From positions 2,214 through 66,213 of the forward strand of contig JAUXAP010000001.1 of the NCBI GenBank assembly GCA_030619865.1: a stretch of 64,000 bases of DNA. The letters run 5' to 3'. Under the pieces are notes generated by a model that was not told the origin of the DNA, made no database searches, and worked only from the letters and a program-made list of their open reading frames with translations. The position numbers were made by a program, and so were the translations under genes. The stretch comes from Dehalococcoidia bacterium (lineage in GTDB: Bacteria > Chloroflexota > Dehalococcoidia > Dehalococcoidales > JAUXAP01). Numbering within the stretch: position 1 is the stretch's first letter; every line of letters starts with the position of its first letter. This document shows, piece by piece, positions 2,148-57,609 of the stretch.

Positions 2148-2879
2148 ATGAAAAAACACTGGTTGCTGGCTATAAGTCTGGCATTGGTGCTGACAACGGT
2201 CGGTTTATATGGCTGTAGACAAGCCGTCAGCACCACCTCAAGCCAGCAGGAAGGCATTTGGGTCACTGGCGAGGGAGAAGTGTCTGTTACTCCGGACATT
2301 GCCAACCTAAGGTTAGGTATTGAAGCTCAGGCGGAAACTGTAAATGAGGCTCTAACCCAGGCGACTGAAGCTATGAACAAGGTGATGGACGCCCTGACCG
2401 ACAATGGGGTGGCCGAGAAAGATATTCAAACTCAATACTTTAACATTCATAAAATAACAAGATGGGATAGGGACAAGGAAGAAGAGGTCGTTATTGGTTA
2501 CAGGGTAACCAATATAGTAACGGCTAAGATAAGAGATATAGATAAGGCTGGCTCTATCATTGACGCTGTAGTTAAAGCTGGGGGAGACCTCACCCGCGTA
2601 GATAGCATCAGCTTTTCCGTGGATGACCCGACAGCCTACTATGAAGAAGCCAGAGCAAAGGCAATAGCTGATGCTAAGAGTAAAGCCGAGCAACTGGCTG
2701 AGCTGGCTGGAGTCACGTTAGGCAAGCCGACTTATATCTCTGAAGGAGGCATCCAGATGCCAACTCCACGGGTGATGGTAGAAGAAATGGTGCAGAAAGC
2801 AGCCGCACCGACACCAATTACCCCCGGGGAGATGGAGATTAGTCTTGCCGTTCAGATAGTCTATGCCATCTTGAAGTAA
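2148..2879 (+). CDS. SIMPL-domain (DUF541) lipoprotein
   Basis: 243 aa. Lipobox-like signal peptide (LVLTTVGLYGC). The core GEGEVSVTPDIANLRLGIEAQAETVNEALTQATEAMNKVMDAL...GYRVTNIVTAKIRDIDKAGSIIDAVVKAGGD matches the SIMPL/26-kDa periplasmic immunogenic protein family. SD AAAGGAGG lies upstream. Confidence 0.8.
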   Translation: MKKHWLLAISLALVLTTVGLYGCRQAVSTTSSQQEGIWVTGEGEVSVTPDIANLRLGIEAQAETVNEALTQATEAMNKVMDALTDNGVAEKDIQTQYFNIHKITRWDRDKEEEVVIGYRVTNIVTAKIRDIDKAGSIIDAVVKAGGDLTRVDSISFSVDDPTAYYEEARAKAIADAKSKAEQLAELAGVTLGKPTYISEGGIQMPTPRVMVEEMVQKAAAPTPITPGEMEISLAVQIVYAILK

Positions 2880-2981
2880 GGGATACATGTCTAAACAGAG
2901 GACGATAGCAAAGCATTATTTTTAGTGTTATAATGCATGAAACAAGACCCAGAAAAGGTTAATTAAGAGGAGGAGATTCCG

Positions 2982-3581
2982 ATGAGAAGGTCCTTGGTTC
3001 TGGCATTAATACTGGTGGTCGGCCTGATAGCTGGCTGTGCTGGTCAGGTACCGACCTACACCCTGACGGTAAGAAGTGCCGTTGGTGGTTCGTTATCTAC
3101 GTCCGGCATCCATATCTGTAATGAAGGTTCCGTGGTTGATATCCAGGCACCGATTGAAGAGGGACTCAGATTCAATGGCTGGACAGGTGATGTTGCAACT
3201 ATAGCCGATACTAATGCTGCCAGTACCACCATTACCATGAATGAAGACTGCACCATAACTGCCAACTTCCTTAAGATCTATACTGACGATGAGAAAGCGA
3301 TAGGTATTGACGTGAATCAGAAATTCATTATTGCTCTTGAGTCCAATCCCACCACTGGCTATAGCTGGCAAGAAAGCCTTGACGAAACTATGGTTGAGCT
3401 ACTAAAAAGTGAATATGAACCGGGTGAAGATGCTCAAAAGGGCGTGGCCGGAGCCGGCGGCAACGACCTTTTCTGGTTCAAGACGTTAAAGAAGGGTCTA
3501 ACCAAGATAACACTGGTCTACAAGCGACCCTGGGAAACAGAAATTGCCGAGCAGAAGGTATTTACAATTATTGTAAAGTGA
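2982..3581 (+). CDS. Lipoprotein with an N-terminal bacterial-repeat beta domain and a C-terminal chagasin-family (I42) cysteine peptidase inhibitor domain
   Basis: 199 aa. Lipobox LIAGC. The segment TYTLTVRSAVGGSLSTSG...EGSVVDIQAPIEEGLRFNGWTGD resembles the divergent InlB B-repeat type. The C-terminal half carries the hallmark NPTTGYSWQ motif of chagasin/ICP inhibitors. SD GAGGAGG lies upstream. Confidence 0.7.
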   Translation: MRRSLVLALILVVGLIAGCAGQVPTYTLTVRSAVGGSLSTSGIHICNEGSVVDIQAPIEEGLRFNGWTGDVATIADTNAASTTITMNEDCTITANFLKIYTDDEKAIGIDVNQKFIIALESNPTTGYSWQESLDETMVELLKSEYEPGEDAQKGVAGAGGNDLFWFKTLKKGLTKITLVYKRPWETEIAEQKVFTIIVK

Positions 3582-3661
3582 TACTTCACCTTACCTCCAC
3601 AAACTAGGCAAGGCTGATTAGCTTCACCACAAGCCAATTTTTCAAAAAACCTAAAACTACT

Positions 3662-3692
3662 GCTAACCAATCGGGGACTTTTTCGTTATATA
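3662..3692 (+). promoter_or_regulatory. Candidate ECF-type promoter (GCTAAC-N16-CGTTATATA) upstream of the 3712 gene
   Basis: AAC at 3665-3667, a 16-nt spacer, then CGTT at 3684-3687. Twelve of 16 spacer positions are identical to the 2085-2115 element. Confidence 0.35.
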
Positions 3693-3711
3693 TTAGTGGA
3701 GGTGATAAGAG

Positions 3712-4140
3712 ATGTCCAAAAAAGTAAAGGTTCTCGTTTCAGTATTGGTGGCAGTAGTCTTCTTAGCAGCGGGTAGCACAGCAATAGTGATGGCACAGGA
3801 AGAACCCGCCCCAGAGGAAACACCACAAGCAGAAGCCAATGGTCTGCTAACCAGAGTGGCCGAGATTCTAGAAATCGACGAGGAAGACTTAGTCAACGCC
3901 TTTAATCAGGCACGACAGGAGATGAGAGATGAGGCTTGCCTTAGATGGCTCGACAAAGCTGTAGAAAAGGGCCTCATTGATGAAGCTGAAGCTGAGGAAA
4001 TCAAAGGGTGGTGGGGACAGAAACCGGAGGCTTTTGACCACCTTTGTCCACGTGCCCGCATCTCTGCGGCAATACGTAGTCGGCAAATGTGGCAATCAAG
4101 GATGTTCTTCAAGCATGGCTGTCCTTTCAGTTCACCTTGA
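3712..4140 (+). CDS. Secreted or membrane-anchored helical acidic protein of unknown function
   Basis: 142 aa. N-terminal signal/TM (VLVSVLVAVVFLAAGSTAIVMA) followed by an E/A-rich helical region. SD GGAGGTG lies 7 nt upstream. I recognise no family with confidence (possibly DUF2680-like). Confidence 0.5.
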   Translation: MSKKVKVLVSVLVAVVFLAAGSTAIVMAQEEPAPEETPQAEANGLLTRVAEILEIDEEDLVNAFNQARQEMRDEACLRWLDKAVEKGLIDEAEAEEIKGWWGQKPEAFDHLCPRARISAAIRSRQMWQSRMFFKHGCPFSSP

Positions 4141-4182
4141 CCAGATAGATAAGTCAGACCGTCTACAACATGAATAAACACC

Positions 4183-4218
4183 AAGTGGGGCAAGCCTCGT
4201 AAGGGGCTTGCCCCACTT
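4183..4218. terminator. Bidirectional intrinsic-terminator-like hairpin between convergent genes
   Basis: AAGTGGGGCAAGCC (4183-4196), an 8-nt loop, then GGCTTGCCCCACTT (4205-4218). This is a perfect 14-bp GC-rich stem between the 3712 gene (+) and ruvB (-). Confidence 0.7.
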
Positions 4219-4251
4219 AATATTTAGTATACCGTTTCTTCCAAGTAAGAA

Positions 4252-5280
4252 CTACAACAGGGTTGGCTGCGGAGGTTTTTCTTTATTATAGGGCAGGCCG
4301 AGGTGCTGATAAGCCAGTTGAGTAGCTAACCGCCCACGAGGAGTGCGCTCTAGAAAGCCCAGTTGCAGAAGATAAGGCTCATAGACATCCATAATGGTAT
4401 CTGCCTCCTCACTGATGGAGGCAGCGATAGTATCCAGTCCCACCGGACCACCATTAAACTTGTCAATGATAGTATGTAACACCTTATGGTCTACCTCATC
4501 CAGACCTATAGAGTCAACTTCAAGCTTAGATAATGCCTCAACTGCCACTGGGTGGGTGGCTATACCATCTGCCATCACCTGAGCATAGTCTCTAACTCGT
4601 TTGAGCAATCGGTTAGCCACACGAGGTGTGCCTCTAGCCCGGCGAGCTATTTCCTCCAGCCCTCCAGTCTCTGCTTTTACCTGTAAAATGTTAGCCGAGC
4701 GTTTGAGTATTGCTTCTATAGATGCCTGGTCATAGAAATCGAGACGATAGACGGCACCAAACCGGTCTCGGAGGGGTGGGCTCAGTAAGGCAAAGCGAGT
4801 AGTAGCCCCAATCAGAGTGAAAGCGGGTAGGTTTAATCGCAGGCTTTTGGCACCAGGACCCTTGCCTATAATAATATCCAAAGCAAAGTCTTCCAGAGCT
4901 GGATATAATATTTCCTCCACTGCCCGGTTGAGGCGGTGGATTTCATCGATAAAGAGTATATCGTGACTACGGAGGTTAGTTAAGATAGCGGCCAGGTCTC
5001 CGGCGCGCTCTACTGCTGGACCCGAGGTAATCTTGATATTAACCCCCATCTCAGCGGCTATAATAAAAGCCAAAGTGGTCTTACCCAAACCAGGTGGACC
5101 GTAGAGGAGTATGTGATCCAGAGCCTCACCCCTGCCTTTAGCAGCAGCGATAGCTATATTCACATTGTCCTTGACCTTGGTCTGCCCCACGAAGTCATCG
5201 AGGCACCGTGGTCGCAGGCTGGTATCAAGTGGTATATCCTCGGTGCTGGGTTTACCCGATATAATGCGAGCTATTTTAAT
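4252..5280 (-). CDS. ruvB: Holliday junction branch migration helicase RuvB; the start codon is non-canonical or unresolved
   Basis: Walker [23 protein letters not shown], and a RuvB C-terminal winged-helix region. The track ORF starts at GTG 5190. However, the conserved RuvB N-terminus ([30 protein letters not shown]) is encoded in frame upstream with no ATG/GTG/TTG. The 5' end is set at ATT 5280, just after SD GGAGGTG (see finding). Confidence 0.85.
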
Positions 5281-13699: not shown

Positions 13700-14335
13700 A
13701 TGAACAAAGTAAAGCAAATCTCCGAGGCAATAGTGCAGCTAAAGTGGGACGAAATCGCTGCGCTGACCAACGAAGCACTGGAAGCCGAAGTCCCAGCACT
13801 GGAGATACTAAACCAAGGCCTGGTGCCGGGAATGTCAGTGGTGGGCACTAAGTTCAGGAATGGTGAGATATTTTTACCTGAGGTGCTGCTTAGTGCCAGG
13901 ACTATGAAGACAGCGCTGGAGATACTGACACCCATCCTGAGCCAGCAGGACACTCCCTCCATGGGCCGGGTGGCCATCGGCACCGTAAAAGGTGACATAC
14001 ACGATATTGGCAAGAACATCGTGGTCAGTATGCTGGAGGGCAATGGTTTTGAAGTGATGGACCTCGGAATTGATGTTGACACAGAGAGATTCGTGGAGGT
14101 GGTCCGCGACAATAACCTACAGATACTTGGGCTATCGGCATTGCTCACCTCTACTATGCCCATGATAGAGGAGACAATAAAGGCACTCGAAAAGGCTGGA
14201 CTCGGGCAAAAGGTGCAGGTGATAGTAGGGGGTGCCCCGGTCACTCAGGCCTATGCCGACCAGATTGGCGCTGATGGCTACGGCGCCGATGCAGTGGCAG
14301 CAGTGGAGAAGGCACGGGACCTTATAGCAACTTAA
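13700..14335 (+). CDS. Corrinoid (B12-binding) protein, MtaC/MtbC/MetH-B12-domain type
   Basis: 211 aa. An N-terminal helical cap plus a Rossmann B12-binding domain with the DxHxxG motif (GDIHDIGKNIV) and a downstream SALLT...GG signature. SD GGAGGTG. Confidence 0.9.
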   Translation: MNKVKQISEAIVQLKWDEIAALTNEALEAEVPALEILNQGLVPGMSVVGTKFRNGEIFLPEVLLSARTMKTALEILTPILSQQDTPSMGRVAIGTVKGDIHDIGKNIVVSMLEGNGFEVMDLGIDVDTERFVEVVRDNNLQILGLSALLTSTMPMIEETIKALEKAGLGQKVQVIVGGAPVTQAYADQIGADGYGADAVAAVEKARDLIAT

Positions 14336-14369
14336 TCACACTAGCTAGAGATGATGGTGAGGTAAAATT

Positions 14370-15428
14370 ATGGCTAAGTACACAAACGCCGAACGGGTTT
14401 TCCAAGCTCTAGAGCGAAAGCAGCCGGACAGAATACCACACTTCGAGCTAACTATAGACCGTAAAATCATCAATAAGATTTTAGCAGGTGCAAGCTACGA
14501 GGAATTTATAGAGCATATGGACTGGGATGCGCTGGTACACCGTGACCGTGACTTCCTCAAGGAGGAGGTGCTCAGTGAGAGCCCCAGGACAACCCGCAAT
14601 GAGTGGGGTGCCGTCAAGCGCTACACCCAAGAAATTAGCCCGATACCTATAGAAGCACCGATAAAGTCCGAGAAGGACCTGGCGAATTACAAACCACCTG
14701 ATCCTGATGAGGAGCACCGCTTTAAACAAATACGACGGTGGGTTAAACGCTACAAGGGGGAGCGAGCTATCGTGGCTGTGGCTACCGACCACAACTCTAT
14801 AACCAGCGACATACTGGGCTTCTCGGAGCGGCTGATGGCTTTCTACACTAACCCGGAGTTAGTGCTTCGTGTACACCAGATAGTGCTTGACTACCAGCTG
14901 CGCTACATAAATAATGCCATCACCGCCGGCGCAGAGATTATCTTTATTGTCGGCGACTGGGCTTACAAGAACGGACCAATGTTCTCACTAGAGCACATGG
15001 ATAAATTTGTGTTTCCCCCATTCAGAGCTATGGTCCAGGAAGCAAAAAAACACGGCGTTTACGTGATGAAGCACACCGATGGCAACTGCTGGTCGTTCTT
15101 GGACGGTATTGTTGAAGCAGGGGTCGATTGCTTTCATCCGATAGATCCCATGGCTGACATGGATATCGGTGAAGCAAAGCAGAAGTACGGAGACGAGCTC
15201 TGTCTGATGGGTAACGTGAACTGCGCAACTACGTTGAGCTTCGGCACTGTAGAGGAAGTACGGCAGGAGACCAAGGAAGTCATACGCAAGGCCGGCCTTG
15301 GTGGGGGACTCATCGTTAGCTCCAGTAACTCCATACACTCGGCCGTCAAGCCGGAGAATTATGTAGAGATGGTGCGCACCATCAGGGAATACGGCAGGTA
15401 CCCCCTAGATATTAAATCGTTGAGTTGA
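14370..15428 (+). CDS. Uroporphyrinogen-decarboxylase-fold (URO-D/MtaA-like) methyltransferase
   Basis: 352 aa. The length and sequence pattern fit URO-D family corrinoid methyltransferases, and it is adjacent to the corrinoid protein. The substrate is not deducible. Confidence 0.7.
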   Translation: MAKYTNAERVFQALERKQPDRIPHFELTIDRKIINKILAGASYEEFIEHMDWDALVHRDRDFLKEEVLSESPRTTRNEWGAVKRYTQEISPIPIEAPIKSEKDLANYKPPDPDEEHRFKQIRRWVKRYKGERAIVAVATDHNSITSDILGFSERLMAFYTNPELVLRVHQIVLDYQLRYINNAITAGAEIIFIVGDWAYKNGPMFSLEHMDKFVFPPFRAMVQEAKKHGVYVMKHTDGNCWSFLDGIVEAGVDCFHPIDPMADMDIGEAKQKYGDELCLMGNVNCATTLSFGTVEEVRQETKEVIRKAGLGGGLIVSSSNSIHSAVKPENYVEMVRTIREYGRYPLDIKSLS

Positions 15429-15492
15429 ACATTACAGGAGCTTACAACCTCTGTTTTTGTGCTAACCAATCGGCTCGCTAAAGGAGAAAACG

Positions 15493-16200
15493 ATGCCCAT
15501 CCTTCATAATGTCCCTTTGACTCTGAGCATCGAGCAATTGCCACGTCGGCAGGGAGTCGGAGAACTTCTAAACCTCCGGCCAGAGATGATAACCCTATTA
15601 CACGAACTGCTAAATAGCGTGGATGAACTTCACCTGTTGGAGCCAGTTATAGCTTATGAATTGCACTCAATAACAGAGATGCAGCATGACCGATTGTGTT
15701 TGAAAGACGGTACAGCGTTTCATGGCCAACTGCTTCCCTCATTCCTGAAAACAGCTAGAGAACTTGCCATTGTGGTCTGCACTATCGGTCCCAGGCTTGA
15801 AGAAAAGGTAACAGACTACTTTAAGCGGGATGAGCCGCTGCAAGGCCTGCTGCTAGATGGTATCGGTAGCACAGCCGTGGATTCCCTTGTCCAGGAGGTC
15901 TGTCAGCTTATAAGGCATGAAGCATCATCCCGCGGTTATGAGGCTAGCAATTCCCTCAGTCCGGGTATGCCTGGCCTGCCTCTTTCAGAGCAGTGGCAGT
16001 TGTTTCAACTAGTGCCTGCAGAGCAAATTGGGGTGCATCTGACCTCTTCAGGAATGATGAGTCCGCGCAAGTCAGCCTCTATGATCATCGGCATAGGACC
16101 AGATATGCCAACCTGGACAGAAGCCCAAGCCTGCGACCGCTGCAGTCTAAAAGAAACCTGCCACTACCGAGTGTATACACATCCAGAGGCCACAACCTAA
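15493..16200 (+). CDS. Stand-alone homolog of the methionine synthase (MetH) activation domain
   Basis: 235 aa. The segment LLLDGIGSTAVDSLVQEVC...SLSPGMPGLPLSEQWQLFQLVPAEQIGVHLTSSGMMSPRKSASMIIGIG and the C-terminal CDRCSLKETCHYR match my memory of Met_synt_B12-type proteins found next to RACE genes. Confidence 0.6.
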   Translation: MPILHNVPLTLSIEQLPRRQGVGELLNLRPEMITLLHELLNSVDELHLLEPVIAYELHSITEMQHDRLCLKDGTAFHGQLLPSFLKTARELAIVVCTIGPRLEEKVTDYFKRDEPLQGLLLDGIGSTAVDSLVQEVCQLIRHEASSRGYEASNSLSPGMPGLPLSEQWQLFQLVPAEQIGVHLTSSGMMSPRKSASMIIGIGPDMPTWTEAQACDRCSLKETCHYRVYTHPEATT

Positions 16201-16215
16201 CAGGAGTAGCTAAAC

Positions 16216-18045
16216 ATGACATCTTATCATATTGATTTCGAGCCAGTGGGTCGGCGAGGAAAATGCCCGGCTGATAAGTGTCTTTTGGATTGCGCACATC
16301 AACTCGGTGTGGGTATTCTCAGCATGTGTGGTGGCCACGGAACCTGCCACTCGTGCAAGGTACAGGTTCTAAGTGGAACTGTCTCGGAGCCAACACCCCA
16401 TGAACAGGAGGCTCTCTCGCCTCAGGAACTGAAGAATGGCTGGCGTCTGGCCTGCCAGACGTATCCCACCAGTGATTGCAAATTGAGTGTGCCGCCCCAA
16501 TCGATGACCACGCCACAACGAATTCAGGTGGAGGGGTTAGAGGTCACTGTTGCTCCCGACCCACCGGTTCGTGCCTACCAGCTTCAGTTACCAGTCTCAT
16601 CTTTATCAGATCCACGGGCCGATAGCGAGCGCCTGCTGGAAACACTGGAGCAACAGCACCAGGTACACTGCAGCATTATTGACATTGATGTCCTGCGGAA
16701 TCTCTCGCCCCAGCTACGATCTTGGAACTGGCAAGCTCAGGCTTCAGTACGTGACAACGAAGTGGTAGCCCTTAGCCCCTGGTCCAGTCACAAACTGGGG
16801 CTAGCCATTGACCTAGGGACTACCAAAATAGCCGGTTATCTTGTTGACCTAGAGAATGGCCAGACGTTTGCCGCCAAGGGAATTATGAACCCGCAGGTCA
16901 GTTATGGGGAAGATATCATCAGCCGCATTACTAGTGCCACAAAATCACCAGTTGAGGCAGCACAAATACAACAGCTTACGGTAACTGCCATCAACCAGCT
17001 AGGTGTTGACCTGTGTGGTGAGGTTAATGCTAAGCCAGAGGAAATCGTTGAGGCAGTGGTGGTAGGCAACACAGCCATGCACCACCTCTTGCTGCGTCTA
17101 CCAGTGGAGCAGCTGGGTCTCTCCCCCTATGTGCCCGCAATTCGTGAGGCCTTGGATATTAAAGCCCGTGATATTGGGCTGCATATAGCATCGGGGGCCT
17201 ACGTACATTTGCTGCCCATCGTAGCTGGCTTTGTGGGAGCTGACCACGTAGCTATGCTGTTAGCTACGGAAGCTTGGCAAGCTGAGGGGCTAACAGTGGC
17301 AATAGACATTGGCACCAACACCGAGGTGAGCCTGGTAAGCGATGGCAAGGTGACCAGCGTCTCCTGCGCTTCTGGCCCTGCTTTTGAGGGAGGGCATATC
17401 AAGTGTGGCATGCGAGCTGCCAGCGGCGCTATAGAACGATTGCTACTAGTAGATGACCAGGTAGAATACCAGACTGTTGATGGAACCCCTCCGGTTGGGC
17501 TTTGTGGCTCAGGCATCCTGGATGCTATGGCCCAGCTCTATCTGGCCGGAGTCATCGATAAGGACGGCAGAATGAAAGATAATCATCCCCGAATGCGTAC
17601 TCGCCAAAAACAACTCGAATTTGTTCTGGTCAGCAAGGACGAACAAGATGGACACCCAGCTATTGTTATCACTCAGCAGGACATCCGAGAACTGCAACTG
17701 GCTAAGGCAGCTATTCGCACCGGTATCCAAGTGCTCCTGGAAACGAACGGCTGCTCTGAAGAAGAAATCAAACAGGTGATAATTGCTGGAGCCTTTGGCA
17801 GCTACATTAATGTGTCCAGTGCGGTAACTATCGGGATGTTGCCATCGCTAGCTCTGGATTGTTTCAGACAGGTAGGAAATGCCGCCGGCATGGGAGCCAA
17901 GCTGGCCCTTGTCTCACGTAGCAAGCGAGCCGAAGCACAGACAGTAGCCCGTCAGGTCGGCTATATCGAATTGGCCACTGCCCCTAATTTTATGCAGACC
18001 TTTGTCCAGGCAACACATATAGGACGCTACAATAGAGGAGGTTAA
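16216..18045 (+). CDS. Reductive activator of corrinoid-dependent enzymes (RACE): 2Fe-2S ferredoxin domain plus ASKHA ATPase (DUF4445)
   Basis: 609 aa. The N-terminal cysteine cluster is CGGHGTCHSCKV...LACQ. The large C-terminal domain has actin-like ATPase motifs (LAIDLGTTKIAGYL, VAIDIGTNTEV, GLCGSGILD). Confidence 0.9.
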   Translation: MTSYHIDFEPVGRRGKCPADKCLLDCAHQLGVGILSMCGGHGTCHSCKVQVLSGTVSEPTPHEQEALSPQELKNGWRLACQTYPTSDCKLSVPPQSMTTPQRIQVEGLEVTVAPDPPVRAYQLQLPVSSLSDPRADSERLLETLEQQHQVHCSIIDIDVLRNLSPQLRSWNWQAQASVRDNEVVALSPWSSHKLGLAIDLGTTKIAGYLVDLENGQTFAAKGIMNPQVSYGEDIISRITSATKSPVEAAQIQQLTVTAINQLGVDLCGEVNAKPEEIVEAVVVGNTAMHHLLLRLPVEQLGLSPYVPAIREALDIKARDIGLHIASGAYVHLLPIVAGFVGADHVAMLLATEAWQAEGLTVAIDIGTNTEVSLVSDGKVTSVSCASGPAFEGGHIKCGMRAASGAIERLLLVDDQVEYQTVDGTPPVGLCGSGILDAMAQLYLAGVIDKDGRMKDNHPRMRTRQKQLEFVLVSKDEQDGHPAIVITQQDIRELQLAKAAIRTGIQVLLETNGCSEEEIKQVIIAGAFGSYINVSSAVTIGMLPSLALDCFRQVGNAAGMGAKLALVSRSKRAEAQTVARQVGYIELATAPNFMQTFVQATHIGRYNRGG

Positions 18046-18048
18046 GTA

Positions 18049-18885
18049 GTGGAAACTAGATTGTCAAGTACCACGAAGGAGGTACTTATTAGCGACAAGG
18101 AGCCGACAATTCTTATCGGCGAGCGTATTAATCCTTCTGGCAAGCAGAAGTTGGTTGCAGCATTACAGGCTGGCAACCTAGAGCTTGTGCGCAAGGAGGC
18201 TCTAGCTCAGGTGCAAGCTGGAGCGGATATCCTCGATGTCAACGTCGGTGCCGCCGGTGTGGATGAGGTGACCCTGCTTCCCCAGGCTGTGCAGGCAGTG
18301 ACGGATGTAGTAGATGTACCCTTATGTCTTGACAGCAGTAATCCCGCAGCCTTAGAGTCGGCCTTAAAAGTCTATCACGGCAAGCCCCTCATCAACTCAG
18401 TCACTGGTGAAGAACACCGTCTGGTGAAGGTTCTGCCTCTGGTCAAGAAATACAAGACAGCAGTCATTGGTCTGACCATGGATGATGAAGGTATCCCGAA
18501 TAATCCAGAGCGACGAGCAGCCATCGCTCATAAGATTGTGGAGCGGGCCGAGGCATCTGGTATCCCCCGTGAGGATATTATCATTGATTGTCTGAGTTTG
18601 TCGATAGGAGCAGATAACGAAGCTGGTCTGGTGACCATCGAAACCATTGGCAAGGTAAAGGCTGAGCTGGGGGTAAACTTGACTCTAGGAGCTAGTAATA
18701 TTTCTTTCGGTCTACCTGATCGTAATTTGCTTAATAGCGCCTTCTTGGTCACGGCTATCATTGCCGGAGTGAACTGTCCCATCGTGGATGTGGCTAAAGC
18801 ACGCCCGATTATCCTAGCTGCTGACCTAATTCTGGGTCGCGATAAACACGCCAGACGTTATATTGAAGCTTACCGCCAACGCTAG
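18049..18885 (+). CDS. Pterin-binding methyltransferase (methyl-H4folate:corrinoid, AcsE/MeTr/MetH-pterin-domain like)
   Basis: 278 aa. GTG start 7 nt after GGAGG. LIGERINPSGKQKL, LDVNVG, LCLDSS, INSV and SNISFGLP are the conserved blocks of the DHPS-like pterin-binding barrel. Confidence 0.85.
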   Translation: METRLSSTTKEVLISDKEPTILIGERINPSGKQKLVAALQAGNLELVRKEALAQVQAGADILDVNVGAAGVDEVTLLPQAVQAVTDVVDVPLCLDSSNPAALESALKVYHGKPLINSVTGEEHRLVKVLPLVKKYKTAVIGLTMDDEGIPNNPERRAAIAHKIVERAEASGIPREDIIIDCLSLSIGADNEAGLVTIETIGKVKAELGVNLTLGASNISFGLPDRNLLNSAFLVTAIIAGVNCPIVDVAKARPIILAADLILGRDKHARRYIEAYRQR

Positions 18886-44658: not shown

Positions 44659-44859
44659 ACCCCCCCCTCATAAATAAAAATCCTCAGCTTACTTATGTTA
44701 CCCCTGAACAAAGGTATTATATTCTACCACAATCCTATTATACTATTAACTCTATAGCTTATACCTATTCCTCACTATAGTTCCAACTATATTGTAGAAA
44801 AATGCTCTTATTTAGTGCTAGAATGTTTTGGCGCTAGGAATAGTAATTGAGTTATAAAA

Positions 44860-45528
44860 ATGATTAAACAAAATGTTGCTCGAATATTGAGTGAACTACC
44901 GAGTGGGGTTCAACTGGTAGCCGCTGCTAAAACAAGACAACCGGAAGAAATTCTGGAGGCGGTCGAGGCTGGTGTAAAAATCATAGGGGAAAACTATGTC
45001 CAGGAAGCTGAAAGAGCATATGAGGTAGTGAGGAATAGAGCCGAATGGCATTTTATAGGACACCTTCAAAAGAATAAGGTGAAGAAAGCGGTAAGGCTGT
45101 TTGACATGATAGAAAGCGTTGATTCTATTGAAATAGCCAAGGAGATTGATAAAAGATGCGCTCAAATTGGTAAGGTAATGCCGGTATTAATTGAGATAAA
45201 CAGTGGTCGCGAAAAGCAAAAAGCAGGCGTATTTCCAGAGAATGCTGAACAGCTAGTAAAAGAGGTTTCAGCTTTTCCTAACATAAGAGTGACGGGTCTT
45301 ATGACTATGGGACCTCGTTTTGGAAACCCTGAAGATTCAAGACCTTATTTTGTGGAAACGAGAAAAATATTTGACAGGATGAAAAAACTCAATTTGCCTG
45401 ATGTAGAGATGAAGTATCTTTCAATGGGGATGACCAATTCTTATAAAATTGCTTTAGAGGAAGGCGCCAATATAGTAAGAATAGGCAGTAAAATATTCGG
45501 AGAGAGGGATTATTCAAAAACGACTTAG
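44860..45528 (+). CDS. yggS: YggS-family pyridoxal-phosphate homeostasis protein
   Basis: 222 aa. LVAAAKTR (PLP lysine), GENYVQE, WHFIGHLQKNK, and the C-terminal LSMGMTNSY...G...VRIGSKIFG block. Confidence 0.88.
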   Translation: MIKQNVARILSELPSGVQLVAAAKTRQPEEILEAVEAGVKIIGENYVQEAERAYEVVRNRAEWHFIGHLQKNKVKKAVRLFDMIESVDSIEIAKEIDKRCAQIGKVMPVLIEINSGREKQKAGVFPENAEQLVKEVSAFPNIRVTGLMTMGPRFGNPEDSRPYFVETRKIFDRMKKLNLPDVEMKYLSMGMTNSYKIALEEGANIVRIGSKIFGERDYSKTT

Positions 45529-45559: not shown

Positions 45560-46417
45560 ATGACAATAACTCATATCATTATTTTGCTGGCAACGGGTAT
45601 CGGGGTTGGCTTTGCCAGTGGTCTTCTAGGGGTCGGTGGTGGCTTTATTGTGACTCCGATTCAATACATGGTATTTACCAGTATGGGAGTTGAGGATCCG
45701 ATGAAGCTAGCCATCGGCACCAGTTTAGCCGTGGTCTTACCAACTGCCTTAAGTGGGACCTGGCGACATAATAAAAAGGGGGCGGTGTGGTGGAAACCAG
45801 CTATTACTATGGGGGTTTGTAGTGCAGCGGCTGCCTTTGGTGGGGCTAGGCTGGCAATCTATCTCCCGGAGGCGGTGCTGAAGATGGTTTTTGGCGTCGT
45901 GGTTCTAGTTGCCGGCATCAGGATGCTCATTTTCAAACCACCATCGGTTGAGCAAGAACCTAGAAGTAACCCTTGGCTGTGGGCAGCTTGGGCTATACCT
46001 GTAGGTTTGATTTCCAGCTTTACCGGCGTCGGTGGTGGCATAGTGGCGGTGCCAATAATGATGCTGGCACTTAGGTTTAAAATGCACACTGCTGTGGCTA
46101 CATCTTTAGCTATGGTGGTATTTACCAGCATTGGTGGGCTAACTGGCTACATTATGAATGGCTGGGGGGTTAGTGGGATTCCGTCTCCCAATCTTGGCTA
46201 TGTCCACATTTGGTCATGGCTGGCTCTGGCTACTACCAGTATTGGCATGGCACAGGTTGGTGCCATAACCGCTCATCGGCTGCCCGCCAAGAAATTGAGA
46301 TATATGTTTGTTTTAGTAGTGTTCTTTATGGGGGGGAGGATGCTGTGGGCTGGCGTCCAAGATGTTATCGGGCCGGAGGCGCTCAGCCTATTTGACTGGC
46401 TAGGTTGGCCGATATAA
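45560..46417 (+). CDS. TauE/SafE-family (DUF81) anion permease
   Basis: 285 aa, about 8 TM helices, with duplicated GxGGG motifs (LLGVGGGFIVTP and FTGVGGGIVAVP). Confidence 0.8.
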   Translation: MTITHIIILLATGIGVGFASGLLGVGGGFIVTPIQYMVFTSMGVEDPMKLAIGTSLAVVLPTALSGTWRHNKKGAVWWKPAITMGVCSAAAAFGGARLAIYLPEAVLKMVFGVVVLVAGIRMLIFKPPSVEQEPRSNPWLWAAWAIPVGLISSFTGVGGGIVAVPIMMLALRFKMHTAVATSLAMVVFTSIGGLTGYIMNGWGVSGIPSPNLGYVHIWSWLALATTSIGMAQVGAITAHRLPAKKLRYMFVLVVFFMGGRMLWAGVQDVIGPEALSLFDWLGWPI

Positions 46418-46550
46418 GCAAATGCTAGATGAACTTAGGGTCGTGCCAATGTAGTAGCAGCTTGGGAAGGGGAAGTGGTATCAGCAAAGTGTAAAGTTGA
46501 CATAGACCTCCAAAATGGCCTACGTCCCCGAGCAAACTCAATGCTTGAGA

Positions 46551-48266
46551 CTAACTCCTGCCAAACTCTCTTTCTAGCTGCCCTGAGCTGAGGCGAATCA
46601 TTATTGGTCTACCATGGGGACAGGTATGAGGAACGGCTACTTGCTCTAGTTGCCGTATAAGCTCTCTCATCTCATCGTCAGTTAGTGTCTGCCCGGCTCT
46701 TACCGCACTGTGACAGGCAATGGATATAGCTATCTTCTCCATCCAATCGCCTTTATCCCCTCCAAATGGGGAATCCGATAGCTCCATTATTGCCCCCGTC
46801 CAATCCGTCTTATTTAGCATTGCTGGCACGGCTCGGACTAAATAGGTTCTATCACCAAAAGGCTCAATAGAGAAACCAAATTCGGTTAGGTTTTCATAAT
46901 GGGATTTCAAAACTTCATCCTGCTTGGGATTAACCTCAAGTGTCACTGGCTCCAGCAGTCCTTGAACCTCTATTTCTTGATGCGACTTCTGCTGCTTAAT
47001 CTTTTCAAAAAGAATGCGCTCATGAGCTGCATGCTGGTCGATAAGATATAACCCATCTGGCCCTTCAGCTATAATGTAGCTACCCAAGACTTGCCCTACT
47101 ATCCGTAGCACCGGCAGAGAGACGGCTGGAGTTTGTAGAGCCACCGGTAGCGGAATAGCGGTGCTGCCACTACTTTCTGGTGGCATCCATAATACCTGCC
47201 TTAGCTTTGATGGTTCTTTATATGTGGTAGCTACCTCCTCGATTTTAGGCACTGGTGCTTGTCCGATTAAGGCCCTTCGGACTGCTTTCTGAATAGCGCT
47301 AAAAATGACACGCTCATTTTGGAACTTCACCTCAGCCTTGGTGGGGTGAATATTAACATCTACCTCATTGGCTGGTAGTGCTATATTAATAATAGCCACT
47401 GGATGTTTCCTCTGCATCAGCAGCCCATGATAAGCCTCCTCTACCGCCCAAGCCAGCAGTCGACTACTTATCCAGCGGCGGTTGACAAAGAAGCTGAGAT
47501 AATTTCTATTGGAACGACTTACTGCTGGTGAGCCTACCATGCCCGTTATCTGTGGCTGCGAAATGGCTGCCCCACTTTCCCATCCCTCGTCCTTATTAAT
47601 CTCCAGCATATTTTGGGCTATCTCTAAACCATAAACCTCAATAACACTATCTATTAACTGACCATTACCCGGTATTCTTAGAGTCACTCTGCCATCAATA
47701 GACAAAGCGAATTTAACCTCGGGGAAAGCAAGAGCATACTGGCTTACGACATTGGCGATATGACTATTTTCTGTAGCTGGCGACTTGAGGAATTTTAATC
47801 TGGCTGGCACATTGCGCAACAGGTTTCTTACCGTAACCGTAGTCCCCTGAGAGCGTCCTTGGCTTCCCCGGTTAGCTGCCTTGCCTCCTTTTAAGCTAAG
47901 ATAAGTCCCCGATGAATTGCCTGGAGCACAGGTAACTATATCTACCTGAGCCACAGCGGCTATGCTGGGCAGTGCCTCCCCGCGAAAGCCAAGACTTGAA
48001 ATAGATTCTAAATCCTCAATACCTTCTATTTTGCTGGTAGCATAACGGTCGAAGGCAAGCTCCACCTCCCCGGCGGGAATCCCAACCCCGTTATCCATCA
48101 CCCTAATAAGACTTATCCCACCACCCCTCACTTCAATAGAAATCTGACTAGAGCCGGCATCCAGTGAATTCTCCACCAGCTACTTCACCACCGAGGCTGG
48201 TCTCTCCACCACCTCACCAGCAGCAATTCGGGACACTATTTCTTTGTCTAAAACTTTAATCGACAT
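46551..48266 (-). pseudogene. mutL: DNA mismatch repair protein MutL interrupted by a single in-frame TAG at codon 29
   Basis: The track ORF (46551-48176) begins inside the GHKL ATPase motif I (ENSLDAG). Translating from ATG 48266 gives [40 protein letters not shown]... The rest of the gene looks intact through the C-terminal endonuclease domain (DQHAAHERILFE, ACHSAVRAG, CPHGRP). Confidence 0.85.
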
Positions 48267-48319
48267 GTCAAACCTTATTTTACACGCTTCCGTGTAAAAT
48301 GTCAATAGTTTTTAAGAAT

Positions 48320-50497
48320 TTATTTTATCTTTTCCAGCTGGGCGAAGCTGAGAAGGAGCTTTTTTACCCCTCCGTTAAAAGCCACCACCACCTCAGTATC
48401 ATCCTTCACCGGCTGGCAGCTCACCACCACCCCGCTGCCGAATTGGGCGTGGTGGACATGGTCACCGGCTTTTAATCCGTCAGCAGTCGCGGCGGGAGTG
48501 AAAGTTCTGGGCCAGGAATACATTGCTTCAGCTATTCGGCTCTCTTCACCCTGCCACCAGCCCTTATCCGAAATCAGATGTTGTGGAATATCGTTCAAGA
48601 AGCGCGACGGTTTATTTACGGCGCTGCTCCCCATGAGACTACGACGGAAGGCACGAACCAGAAAAACCCTCTGCTTGGCTCTAGTTATGCCTACGTAGCA
48701 CAGTCGCCTCTCCTCTTCCAGCTGGGCTGGGTCATCGAACGACCTAAAATGGGGCAGGATTCCGTCCTCCATACCAACAATAAACACCACCGGGAACTCC
48801 AGTCCCTTGGCTTGATGCAGGGTAATCAGGGTTACGGCATCCACCGTTTCGTCAAGCCCATCCACATCAGATACCAGCGTGACCCCTTCCAAGAAGACGG
48901 CTAAGCCCTCTCGCGGTTTCAAGTCGCGATATTGCTGGGCTACAGTGCGAAGCTCCATAATATTGTCCCAGCGCTCCTCTCCATCCACCCCCTTTAATAT
49001 ATAATCCTTATATCCAGAGCCTTTCACAACTAGGTCAAATAAATCAACCAAGTTTAGCTTCTTACTGTGAGTAATAAACCCTTCTATTAGGTTTAGAAAA
49101 TCGGTTAGCGCCTTAGCGATACGAGGGCTAACCGGAAGCTGGGGCTCCTTGTCCTTTGGCTTAGCCAAAAGCTGTAACGCCTCATAGCGAGAGATACCCT
49201 GAGACTTTGCCCAGCCAGATAGCTTGGCTAGGGTTTGCTGTCCAATACCCCGCCCGGGAACATTAATTACTCTTAACAGGCTGACACTATCATAGGGGTT
49301 CTGGATAAGCCTGAGATAGGCAATAACATCCTTTATCTCTCGCCTCTCATAGAAGCGGGTACCAGCCACCAGTTTATAGGGTATCCCGTAACGAACAAAG
49401 GCCTCCTCAAGAGCTCTTGACTGGGCATTGGTGCGATACATTACGGCACAGTCGCCCAGTTTAACCTTCCCCCCATCCACCAAGCGCTCCACCCCATTAA
49501 CTACGAACTGGGCTTCTTCTTGCTCAGTATAGGTCTCAACCACCATGGTTAGCTCACCCTGTTCATTATCTGTCCATAAATTTTTAGGCTTACGCTGCTG
49601 ATTGGCTGAAATTACGTAAGATGCCGTTTCCAGAATCTTTTTCGTCGAGCGATAGTTCTGTTCGAGCAGTATTACTTTAGCCTCAGGATAATCTTTCTCA
49701 AAGCTGAGGATATTACGCAGGTCAGCAAACCGCCATGAGTAGATTGATTGGTCAGGGTCGCCGACAACACATATATTGCGATACTTCCCGGCTAGTTGCT
49801 TCACTAGTTCATACTGGGTCAGATTAGTATCCTGAAACTCATCAACATGGATATGCCGGTATCTTCTTTGGTATCGAGATAGAACCTCAGGGCTCTTTCT
49901 GAATAGCTGCACCGCCTTCAATAATAAATCGTCAAAGTCCAGAGCCCTACTTTCCCCCAGTAGCTGCTGATAGCGCTCATAGATTCGCCCGGCTACCTCC
50001 TCAAAATAGCTACGACTACGCTGAATATAGTCTTCGGGGGTTAATATGTGACTCTTAGCTGCCGAAATGGCTGATTTTATCGCCTGAGGGGCGTATTGCT
50101 TGGGGTCAAGACCTACTTCCTGAGTGCTGCGCTTTATCACGCTTATCTGGTCTTCTTCATCATAGATTACGAATCTGGGGTTAACACCTATTGCCTTGCC
50201 GTCCTTGCGCAGGATACGAGCACAAATGGCGTGAAAGGTACCTAGAGTCAAATCCTTCACCGAACCGCTAACCAGTCGATGGAGCCTCTCCTCCATTTCT
50301 CTGGCGGCTTTATTGGTGAAGGTAACCGCCATGATACGGCGTGGGTTAACACCACAAACTTTAATCAAGTAAGCGATACGATGGGTAATAACCCTGGTCT
50401 TGCCACTGCCCGGACCAGCTAAAATCAGTACCGGACCATTAATTGCCTCTGCTGCTTCCCTTTGCGCCGGGTTAAGGTCAGCCAAAATATCTATCAT
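48320..50497 (-). CDS. pcrA: ATP-dependent DNA helicase PcrA/UvrD (SF1)
   Basis: 725 aa. Walker A AGPGSGKT, TFTNKAA, the DEFQDTN motif, VGDPDQSIY, and C-terminal LCYVGITRAK. Confidence 0.93.
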   Translation of the reverse strand: MIDILADLNPAQREAAEAINGPVLILAGPGSGKTRVITHRIAYLIKVCGVNPRRIMAVTFTNKAAREMEERLHRLVSGSVKDLTLGTFHAICARILRKDGKAIGVNPRFVIYDEEDQISVIKRSTQEVGLDPKQYAPQAIKSAISAAKSHILTPEDYIQRSRSYFEEVAGRIYERYQQLLGESRALDFDDLLLKAVQLFRKSPEVLSRYQRRYRHIHVDEFQDTNLTQYELVKQLAGKYRNICVVGDPDQSIYSWRFADLRNILSFEKDYPEAKVILLEQNYRSTKKILETASYVISANQQRKPKNLWTDNEQGELTMVVETYTEQEEAQFVVNGVERLVDGGKVKLGDCAVMYRTNAQSRALEEAFVRYGIPYKLVAGTRFYERREIKDVIAYLRLIQNPYDSVSLLRVINVPGRGIGQQTLAKLSGWAKSQGISRYEALQLLAKPKDKEPQLPVSPRIAKALTDFLNLIEGFITHSKKLNLVDLFDLVVKGSGYKDYILKGVDGEERWDNIMELRTVAQQYRDLKPREGLAVFLEGVTLVSDVDGLDETVDAVTLITLHQAKGLEFPVVFIVGMEDGILPHFRSFDDPAQLEEERRLCYVGITRAKQRVFLVRAFRRSLMGSSAVNKPSRFLNDIPQHLISDKGWWQGEESRIAEAMYSWPRTFTPAATADGLKAGDHVHHAQFGSGVVVSCQPVKDDTEVVVAFNGGVKKLLLSFAQLEKIK

Positions 50498-52140: not shown

Positions 52141-52188
52141 AGTAAATTAATAAAAATCAAAGAAGGAATAAAATTTGAACCTTTAAGC

Positions 52189-54286
<2,098 letters not shown>

Positions 54287-57105: not shown

Positions 57106-57609
57106 ATGGGAAAGCAAACGCTAGAACAAATTAAGGAAAAGGAAATTGAAATACAAGGAGATAGTCTAGAAAATTTCTACCCAATCATAACAATGGTAGC
57201 AGCTGAATTGCGTTTTAGAAATCACTTTTATGAAGCACGACTAGCCAATTCAAATGTTACAGATAGTTCTGCTGGATTTGCCGTTTTTACTATCGATCCA
57301 ACTAGTATGAGTAAGACACTAATCGGAGCTTTCACGTTACTTTTGCTTGGAAGTAATCGAATAATGCTAAGAGTATCTCCCCGTTCACGATGGCATCATG
57401 ATTTTGATCTCACTCCAGGAGAGATAATTAAACTAGGATTAATCACAAATGATGAAAGTGATAGAAAGTTTTATGACGAGCAGTTTAATCAATTCATTAA
57501 CAGTTTAGAGGAGAGACTCGCGCACTACGGCTTAAAGGTAACGTGGTACAAGAAATTGTGGCGTGTCGTAAAGGAACTTACAGGAATAGCAAAGGCAGTA
57601 AAACCGTAA
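57106..57609 (+). CDS. AT-rich orphan protein of unknown function inserted between carA and carB
   Basis: 167 aa. A purine-rich SD (GGGGGTGAGG) lies upstream. No recognisable motif or family. G+C is about 34 percent in my hand count of the first 120 nt, against about 63 percent at 57661-57720 in carB. Confidence 0.5.
   Translation: MGKQTLEQIKEKEIEIQGDSLENFYPIITMVAAELRFRNHFYEARLANSNVTDSSAGFAVFTIDPTSMSKTLIGAFTLLLLGSNRIMLRVSPRSRWHHDFDLTPGEIIKLGLITNDESDRKFYDEQFNQFINSLEERLAHYGLKVTWYKKLWRVVKELTGIAKAVKP

Follow-up and report, generated by a model that had tools for sequence, protein, structure and literature searches.

Inactivated mutL alleles that turn their hosts into transient mutators are well known, among others from E. 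coli evolution lines and from strains of culture collections. Mutator alleles of mutL and of mutS, some natural and some from the laboratory, have been described for the E. coli long-term evolution lines and the ancestral Escherich strain (PMC5793043), and V. cholerae hypermutators with an inactivated mismatch-repair gene have been detected in metagenomes (PMC8407408). Such alleles are typically young and transient, and higher rates of transitions and small indels are expected of them. Work cited in PMC5793043 also concerns reversible mutL switches of Salmonella and E. coli, in which 6-bp tandem repeats turn mutL off within its N-terminal ATPase domain. The catalytic glutamate of this domain, Glu29, has been replaced in engineered mutants: the E. 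coli mutL-E29A allele leads to a higher mutation rate (PMC1616947), and in Aquifex MutL the ATPase activity is undetectable for E29A, V, K and G, with E29Q at about 1% of the wild-type kcat/Km (PMC13614785). In-frame TAG codons are also known as pyrrolysine codons in the methylamine methyltransferases. One paper reports that certain lineages of the Chloroflexi and Dehalococcoidia possess pylS (PMC5424206).

The mutL gene described here is located in a 64-kb stretch of assembled DNA (hereafter the window) from an uncultured member of the Dehalococcoidales, and an in-frame amber codon takes the place of its Glu29 codon. As assembled, it is a further instance of an inactivated mutL allele, with an ordinary lesion. 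It resembles the known mutator alleles in that an inactivating mismatch-repair lesion lies in a normal genome, but the lesion is a nonsense substitution rather than a repeat-length or missense change, the host is uncultured and known from assembled sequence alone, and the branch length is normal. The engineered Glu29 mutants affect the same residue and motif, and the same loss of ATP hydrolysis and repair is expected; however, they are complete proteins with a missense change and may act as dominant negatives, whereas little or no full-length protein is expected from the window mutL. As in the 6-bp-repeat switches, to the extent that these are summarized in PMC5793043, mutL is turned off within its N-terminal ATPase domain. 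Unlike these switches, the lesion involves no repeat, and its reversion would need one particular T-to-G transversion, or an intact allele with which to recombine. A repeat-mediated reversible switch was rejected since no tandem repeat is found within 46400-48400, and there is no homopolymer at the site. The likeness to pyrrolysine codons consists of an in-frame TAG in a host class with reported pylS; in contrast to those codons, this TAG occurs in no orthologue, replaces an invariant catalytic Glu and belongs to a genome fragment in which TAG is a common stop.

The mutL frame occupies 46551..48266 on the minus strand, from an intact ATG start codon at 48266..48264 to its natural stop, a TAG at 46553..46551, and comprises 571 codons plus the stop. 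It is broken once, by the amber TAG at 48180..48182 (minus strand; plus-strand CTA) in place of the Glu29 codon, which is GAG or GAA in relatives. The window mutL thus lacks the uninterrupted frame of orthologue length that its relatives have (547-598 aa, unbroken). Normal termination at the amber codon yields only a 28-codon N-terminal fragment (48183..48266, minus strand). After the TAG (48182..48180) the frame resumes as LVENSLDAG, and a residual open reading frame of 541 aa can be read from a GTG codon (Val31; 46551..48176, minus strand), lacking residues 1-30 and hence Glu29. Over the 1,716 nt of mutL we found no frameshift, no indel and no second stop. The preliminary description had stated that the remaining 541 codons are unharmed; the absence of any further lesion was confirmed, and the count was corrected, as 542 codons follow the stop and 541 is the length of the GTG-initiated frame. 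This 541-aa truncated MutL is on record (P0138) in a collection of 15 billion proteins, with a single 68,153-bp NCBI contig as its source. The amber stop is therefore part of the deposited assembly, and is found in no other assembly.

To assign the gene, the window MutL with Glu put back at position 29 was compared with family models. The restored product scores 535.5 bits against TIGR00585 (mutL; E-value 1.8e-160, cut-off 180), and the domains PF13589 (HATPase_c_3), PF01119 (DNA_mis_repair) and PF08676 (MutL_C) are all above gathering. The alignment with full-length E. coli MutL (7p8v_A) is free of gaps over residues 1-105 of both proteins, and a string of 25 residues is identical in the two. 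Codon 29 therefore corresponds to E. coli Glu29, the catalytic glutamate of the GHKL ATPase. The same alignment bears out the equivalence proposed in the preliminary description, and the E. coli N-terminus quoted there is correct. GHKL motif I is consequently incomplete: its remainder, ENSLDAG with the Mg-binding Asn33, is intact downstream of the stop (48153..48173, minus strand), but the codon for its catalytic Glu is TAG. The C-terminal half of the frame holds the endonuclease motif DQHAAHERILFE at residues 410-421 (47004..47039, minus strand), which follows the pattern DQHA(X)2E(X)4E that defines MutL endonucleases. An ACR/SCK-like endonuclease motif, ACHSAVR (residues 517-523), and the metal-binding motif CPHGRP of the endonuclease C-terminal domain (residues 549-554; 46605..46622, minus strand) are intact as well. 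The same is true for QGLLEP (46947..46964, minus strand), which we take to be a putative beta-clamp-binding-like motif. Judged by these motifs, the mutL of the window is of the endonuclease type, with all its C-terminal endonuclease motifs kept.

The best protein relatives of this MutL (P0001-P0005) are metagenome sequences of 571 aa with 91-95% identity. Named relatives are found at about 76-80% identity among Dehalococcoidales and Dehalococcoidia metagenome-assembled genomes, several of them from subsurface metagenomes, and a scan of GTDB representative genomes gave nothing nearer than 80% protein identity, so that these matches do not include the source species. At the nucleotide level, four close relatives of the window mutL were found: L002 (95.3% identity), L001 (94.9%), L003 (94.8%) and L004 (90.5%). 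Their codon 29 is GAG in three cases and GAA in L003. The preliminary description had proposed a single G-to-T change from GAG, which agrees with these codons, and had suggested comparing mutL with its orthologues; throughout that comparison codon 29 is GAG or GAA. In an alignment of the 120 best protein matches, all about full length, Glu occupies column 29 in every sequence (120/120). We fetched 62 relative loci, 58 of which cover codon 29, and all 58 carry Glu there (42 GAG, 16 GAA). The exact 22-mer bearing the TAG is absent from all 62. Among JGI metagenome contigs, 23 matched a 38-nt pattern in which the mutated base was replaced by N, none with TAG at codon 29 and all with GAG or GAA. 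No second assembly of the same strain was present in the collections searched, and exact searches with the 541-aa product and with the UvrD next to it returned no encoding contig. Since every relative has a Glu codon and no metagenome contig has TAG, the amber at codon 29 is, on these comparisons, a private and derived G-to-T substitution.

The restored mutL contains 166 codons that are one step away from a stop, with 199 mutational paths. That the amber fell on Glu29 specifically is a coincidence of about 1 in 170 and no evidence of design. The position matters only in that it closes the escape routes of readthrough and restart.

We consider it slightly more probable than not that the amber is a genuine and very recent loss-of-function allele that formed the majority in the Dehalococcoidales population sampled. 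In the sequence as assembled, mutL carries the inactivating lesion expected of a mismatch-repair null. The lesion, its private and derived nature and its intact surroundings are seen in the sequences; we infer that the base is real in the cells, that repair is lost and that the phenotype is that of a mutator. Under this reading, mutL would have been intact and presumably expressed before the lesion. A G-to-T change on the coding strand (C-to-A at plus-strand position 48182) would then have turned the GAG codon of Glu29 into an amber, and ribosomes would stop after 28 residues. If translation began again at GTG 48176, the product would lack residues 1-30, and near-cognate readthrough would place a residue other than Glu at the catalytic position. 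By analogy with the Glu29 mutants, either product would be ATPase-deficient. Whichever of these occurs, MutL would have no GHKL ATPase cycle or a strongly reduced one, so that MutS-MutL mismatch repair would fail and the cell would become a mutator. We see an even chance that the allele is both real and dominant in the sample, in which case it would represent a natural mismatch-repair-null population of uncultured Dehalococcoidales, probably from the subsurface or from sediment, sampled shortly after the knockout.

Two segments of mutL stand out in comparison with the relatives. Five private substitutions fall within 13 nt at mutL nt 151-163 (about 48104-48116; codons 50-55), and nt 1100-1200 (about 47067-47166) resembles L004, the relative at 90%, more than it does L001-L003, which are at 95%. 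Both segments suggest mosaic recombination among lineages. The L004-like stretch at nt 1100-1200 also suggests a route to repair, as an allele such as the amber one could readily be restored through recombination between lineages.

The main competitor of a recent null allele is an error of consensus, assembly or sequencing, or else a variant from a minority strain threaded into the contig, with a true mutL that reads GAG and is functional. We regard this as a serious possibility, though a less probable one. Apart from one base the gene looks as if under normal purifying selection (dN/dS of mutL 0.15-0.26 between the window and its relatives, 0.15-0.17 among the relatives), its promoter is intact, its branch shows no rate acceleration, and the allele is present in just one contig anywhere searched. 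The visibly mosaic populations (nt 151-163 and nt 1100-1200) make strain mixing in the assembly plausible. All these points are, however, equally expected of a very recent real mutation. G-to-T is also the classic oxidative-damage artefact of library preparation. An error would also have to come from a very low error rate, as no other gene of the window has a lesion. The window otherwise looks like a clean assembly, with no N, a coding density of about 90% and 47 uninterrupted open reading frames. All 16 other genes common to the window and L001 align over their whole length without an internal stop; two of them show a stop at the extreme C-terminal end only, and one such ending is common to L004. 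The site lies outside homopolymers and tandem repeats, and in short-read assemblies consensus substitution errors are usually rarer than real pseudogenes. The real allele is favoured over an artefact because the window gives no further indication of error, nothing obvious makes the site error-prone and nonsense pseudogenes are usually the commoner event. At the other extreme, mutL may have been lost long ago in this lineage and be decaying as an old pseudogene. In its favor, the private mutL changes of the window are slightly richer in nonsynonymous than in synonymous entries (10 versus 7, including E29* and with V51I counted twice). Besides the stop, T198I is the sole residue that none of the 120 relatives has, and 117 of them have Thr there. 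But L001 shows a similar private ratio (8 nonsynonymous, 5 synonymous), and the number of unusual residues falls within the span of intact relatives, which have 0-5 each at conserved columns. Moreover, a single stop without frameshift or indel over the whole gene, a conserved promoter and a branch no longer than that of the sister all speak against long decay. We rejected an old pseudogene on the substitution counts and consider it very improbable. The age of the lesion is further constrained by a relative-rate test that took L004 as the outgroup and covered about 7.5 kb, and which counted 133 private substitutions in the window and 147 in L001 (chi-square 0.7) with a badly aligned indel region left out; with that region the chi-square is 5.2 and it is the L001 branch that is longer. 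The window lineage thus shows no excess of substitutions over its sister L001. It has no private indels in genes, and its transition/transversion ratio (window 4.8, L001 2.3, outgroup branch 5.2) exceeds that of L001 but equals that of the outgroup branch and is not diagnostic. A long-standing mutator should have a much longer branch, so the lesion is either very young or not real. The mutator lineage that the preliminary description had put forward, on condition of a genuine null, accordingly finds no support in the divergence data, the branch being without rate acceleration. Of the three options it had listed, a recent event and a consensus error both stand, and readthrough has become unlikely.

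Readthrough would require that pyrrolysine machinery or a suppressor tRNA decodes the amber to give a full-length MutL, and we judge this highly unlikely. What speaks for it is the presence of pylS genes in some Chloroflexi and Dehalococcoidia lineages, noted above, and a corrinoid methyltransferase cluster in the window itself (13700-18885). The stop is also followed by a C, a weak termination context in E. coli. Against it, TAG ends 12 of the 48 open reading frames of the window, including those of rpoC, ruvB, dnaK and mutL itself, and no other in-frame TAG was found among 19,219 codons of these frames; reassignment of the code was rejected on this stop-codon usage. The five tRNAs of the window (Ala, Arg, Trp, Leu and Gly) include none with a CUA anticodon, and no pyl genes (pylSBCD) are present in the 64 kb. 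TAG is found at codon 29 in no relative (0/58 loci, 0/120 proteins). The sequence around the stop matches that of relatives reading GAG, which indicates that a recoding signal has not evolved. We also rejected a recoding structure downstream, since the 110 nt past the stop fold no better (-27.9 kcal/mol) than in the GAG relatives (-29.2 to -32.9 kcal/mol). With TAG as an ordinary stop, no CUA-anticodon tRNA in the window and unchanged flanks, programmed recoding is unlikely. The site, in addition, demands Glu: a Lys-like residue or Gln would give an inactive or about 100-fold impaired ATPase, and because Glu29 substitutions kill the ATPase the position itself argues against useful readthrough. 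That the lineage has Pyl machinery and makes full-length MutL only when the TAG is read, with a dead ATPase, seems to us extremely improbable. Just as improbable is a functional short form, in which a restart at GTG 48176 gives a working MutL of 541 aa without residues 1-30. This GTG lies 3 nt past the stop with a weak Shine-Dalgarno-like string (GGTGG) 12 nt upstream, and the truncated frame retains Asn33 and all later motifs. Yet such a protein would begin inside GHKL motif I, without Glu29 and the N-terminal arm, and Glu29 mutants lose ATPase and repair. The preliminary description had named the possibility that the GTG 48176 product is the normal form in relatives. This fails on comparison, as all 120 relatives are about full length with Glu29, and the ten closest examined share the Met and the N-terminus.

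If the base is real, the very recent null allele favoured here would be a wild mutator genotype in a slow-growing uncultured lineage, where the evolution of mutation rates is hard to observe, and an excess of transitions and small indels, as expected of a mutator, could be sought in the source metagenome. Should the base be an error, nothing more follows than that a truncated 541-aa MutL in the public record needs correction. Either way the mechanism is textbook, and the knowledge of mismatch repair is unchallenged.

Directly upstream of mutL, the window encodes an intact helicase of the uvrD/pcrA type (48320..50497, minus strand), a conserved neighbour in relatives; the uvrD-mutL arrangement is common to L001 and L004. 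The 53-nt spacer between both genes contains a near-consensus promoter-like site, TTGACA-17-TAAAAT (48277..48305, minus strand), just upstream of mutL and nearly unchanged in L001, L002 and L004. In the 95% relative L003 (JGI 3300022539), uvrD and mutL are separated by an inserted restriction-modification pair (2507-4599 of that locus). It consists of an N6_N4 methyltransferase of 425 aa and an EcoRII-C endonuclease of 262 aa, and no such insert occurs in the window, L001 or L004. Further genes of the window include rpoB, rpoC, ruvB, the hrcA-grpE-dnaK-dnaJ genes and a pyr/car operon; mutS is absent from the 64 kb.

Other differences between the window and its relatives were seen away from mutL. 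The spacer between a yggS-like gene and der is 201 nt long (44659-44859), while the relatives have about 600 bp there: L001 contains open reading frames of 103 and 80 aa (L001:13639-14198) and L004 a single one of 178 aa (L004:6476-7012). The yggS-like gene ends at a TAG (45526-45528), with a second in-frame TAG eight codons further on. Its product is 222 aa long in the window and 231 aa in L001, which reads through and is nine residues longer; the short form is common to L004. Just upstream of carB, the window (57106-57609, plus strand) and L001 (751-1254, minus strand) each have an open reading frame of 167 aa without Pfam hits. These two frames have no detectable similarity (BLASTP E-value 0.45), and the DNA alignment of the window and L001, which are about 95% identical, breaks exactly there. 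From the alignment, this difference looks like a cassette-like replacement inside the pyr/car operon.

The corrinoid-dependent methyltransferase cluster at 13700-18885 comprises a B12-binding protein, a URO-D/MtaA-like methyltransferase, a 235-aa open reading frame without Pfam hit, a RACo reductive activator and a pterin-binding protein, and is adjoined by an aldehyde:ferredoxin oxidoreductase. In addition, a PyrR-binding-site RNA (RF00515) was detected at 52176-52271 (plus strand), upstream of a pyrR-like gene, with a score of 54.2 bits against a gathering threshold of 54.
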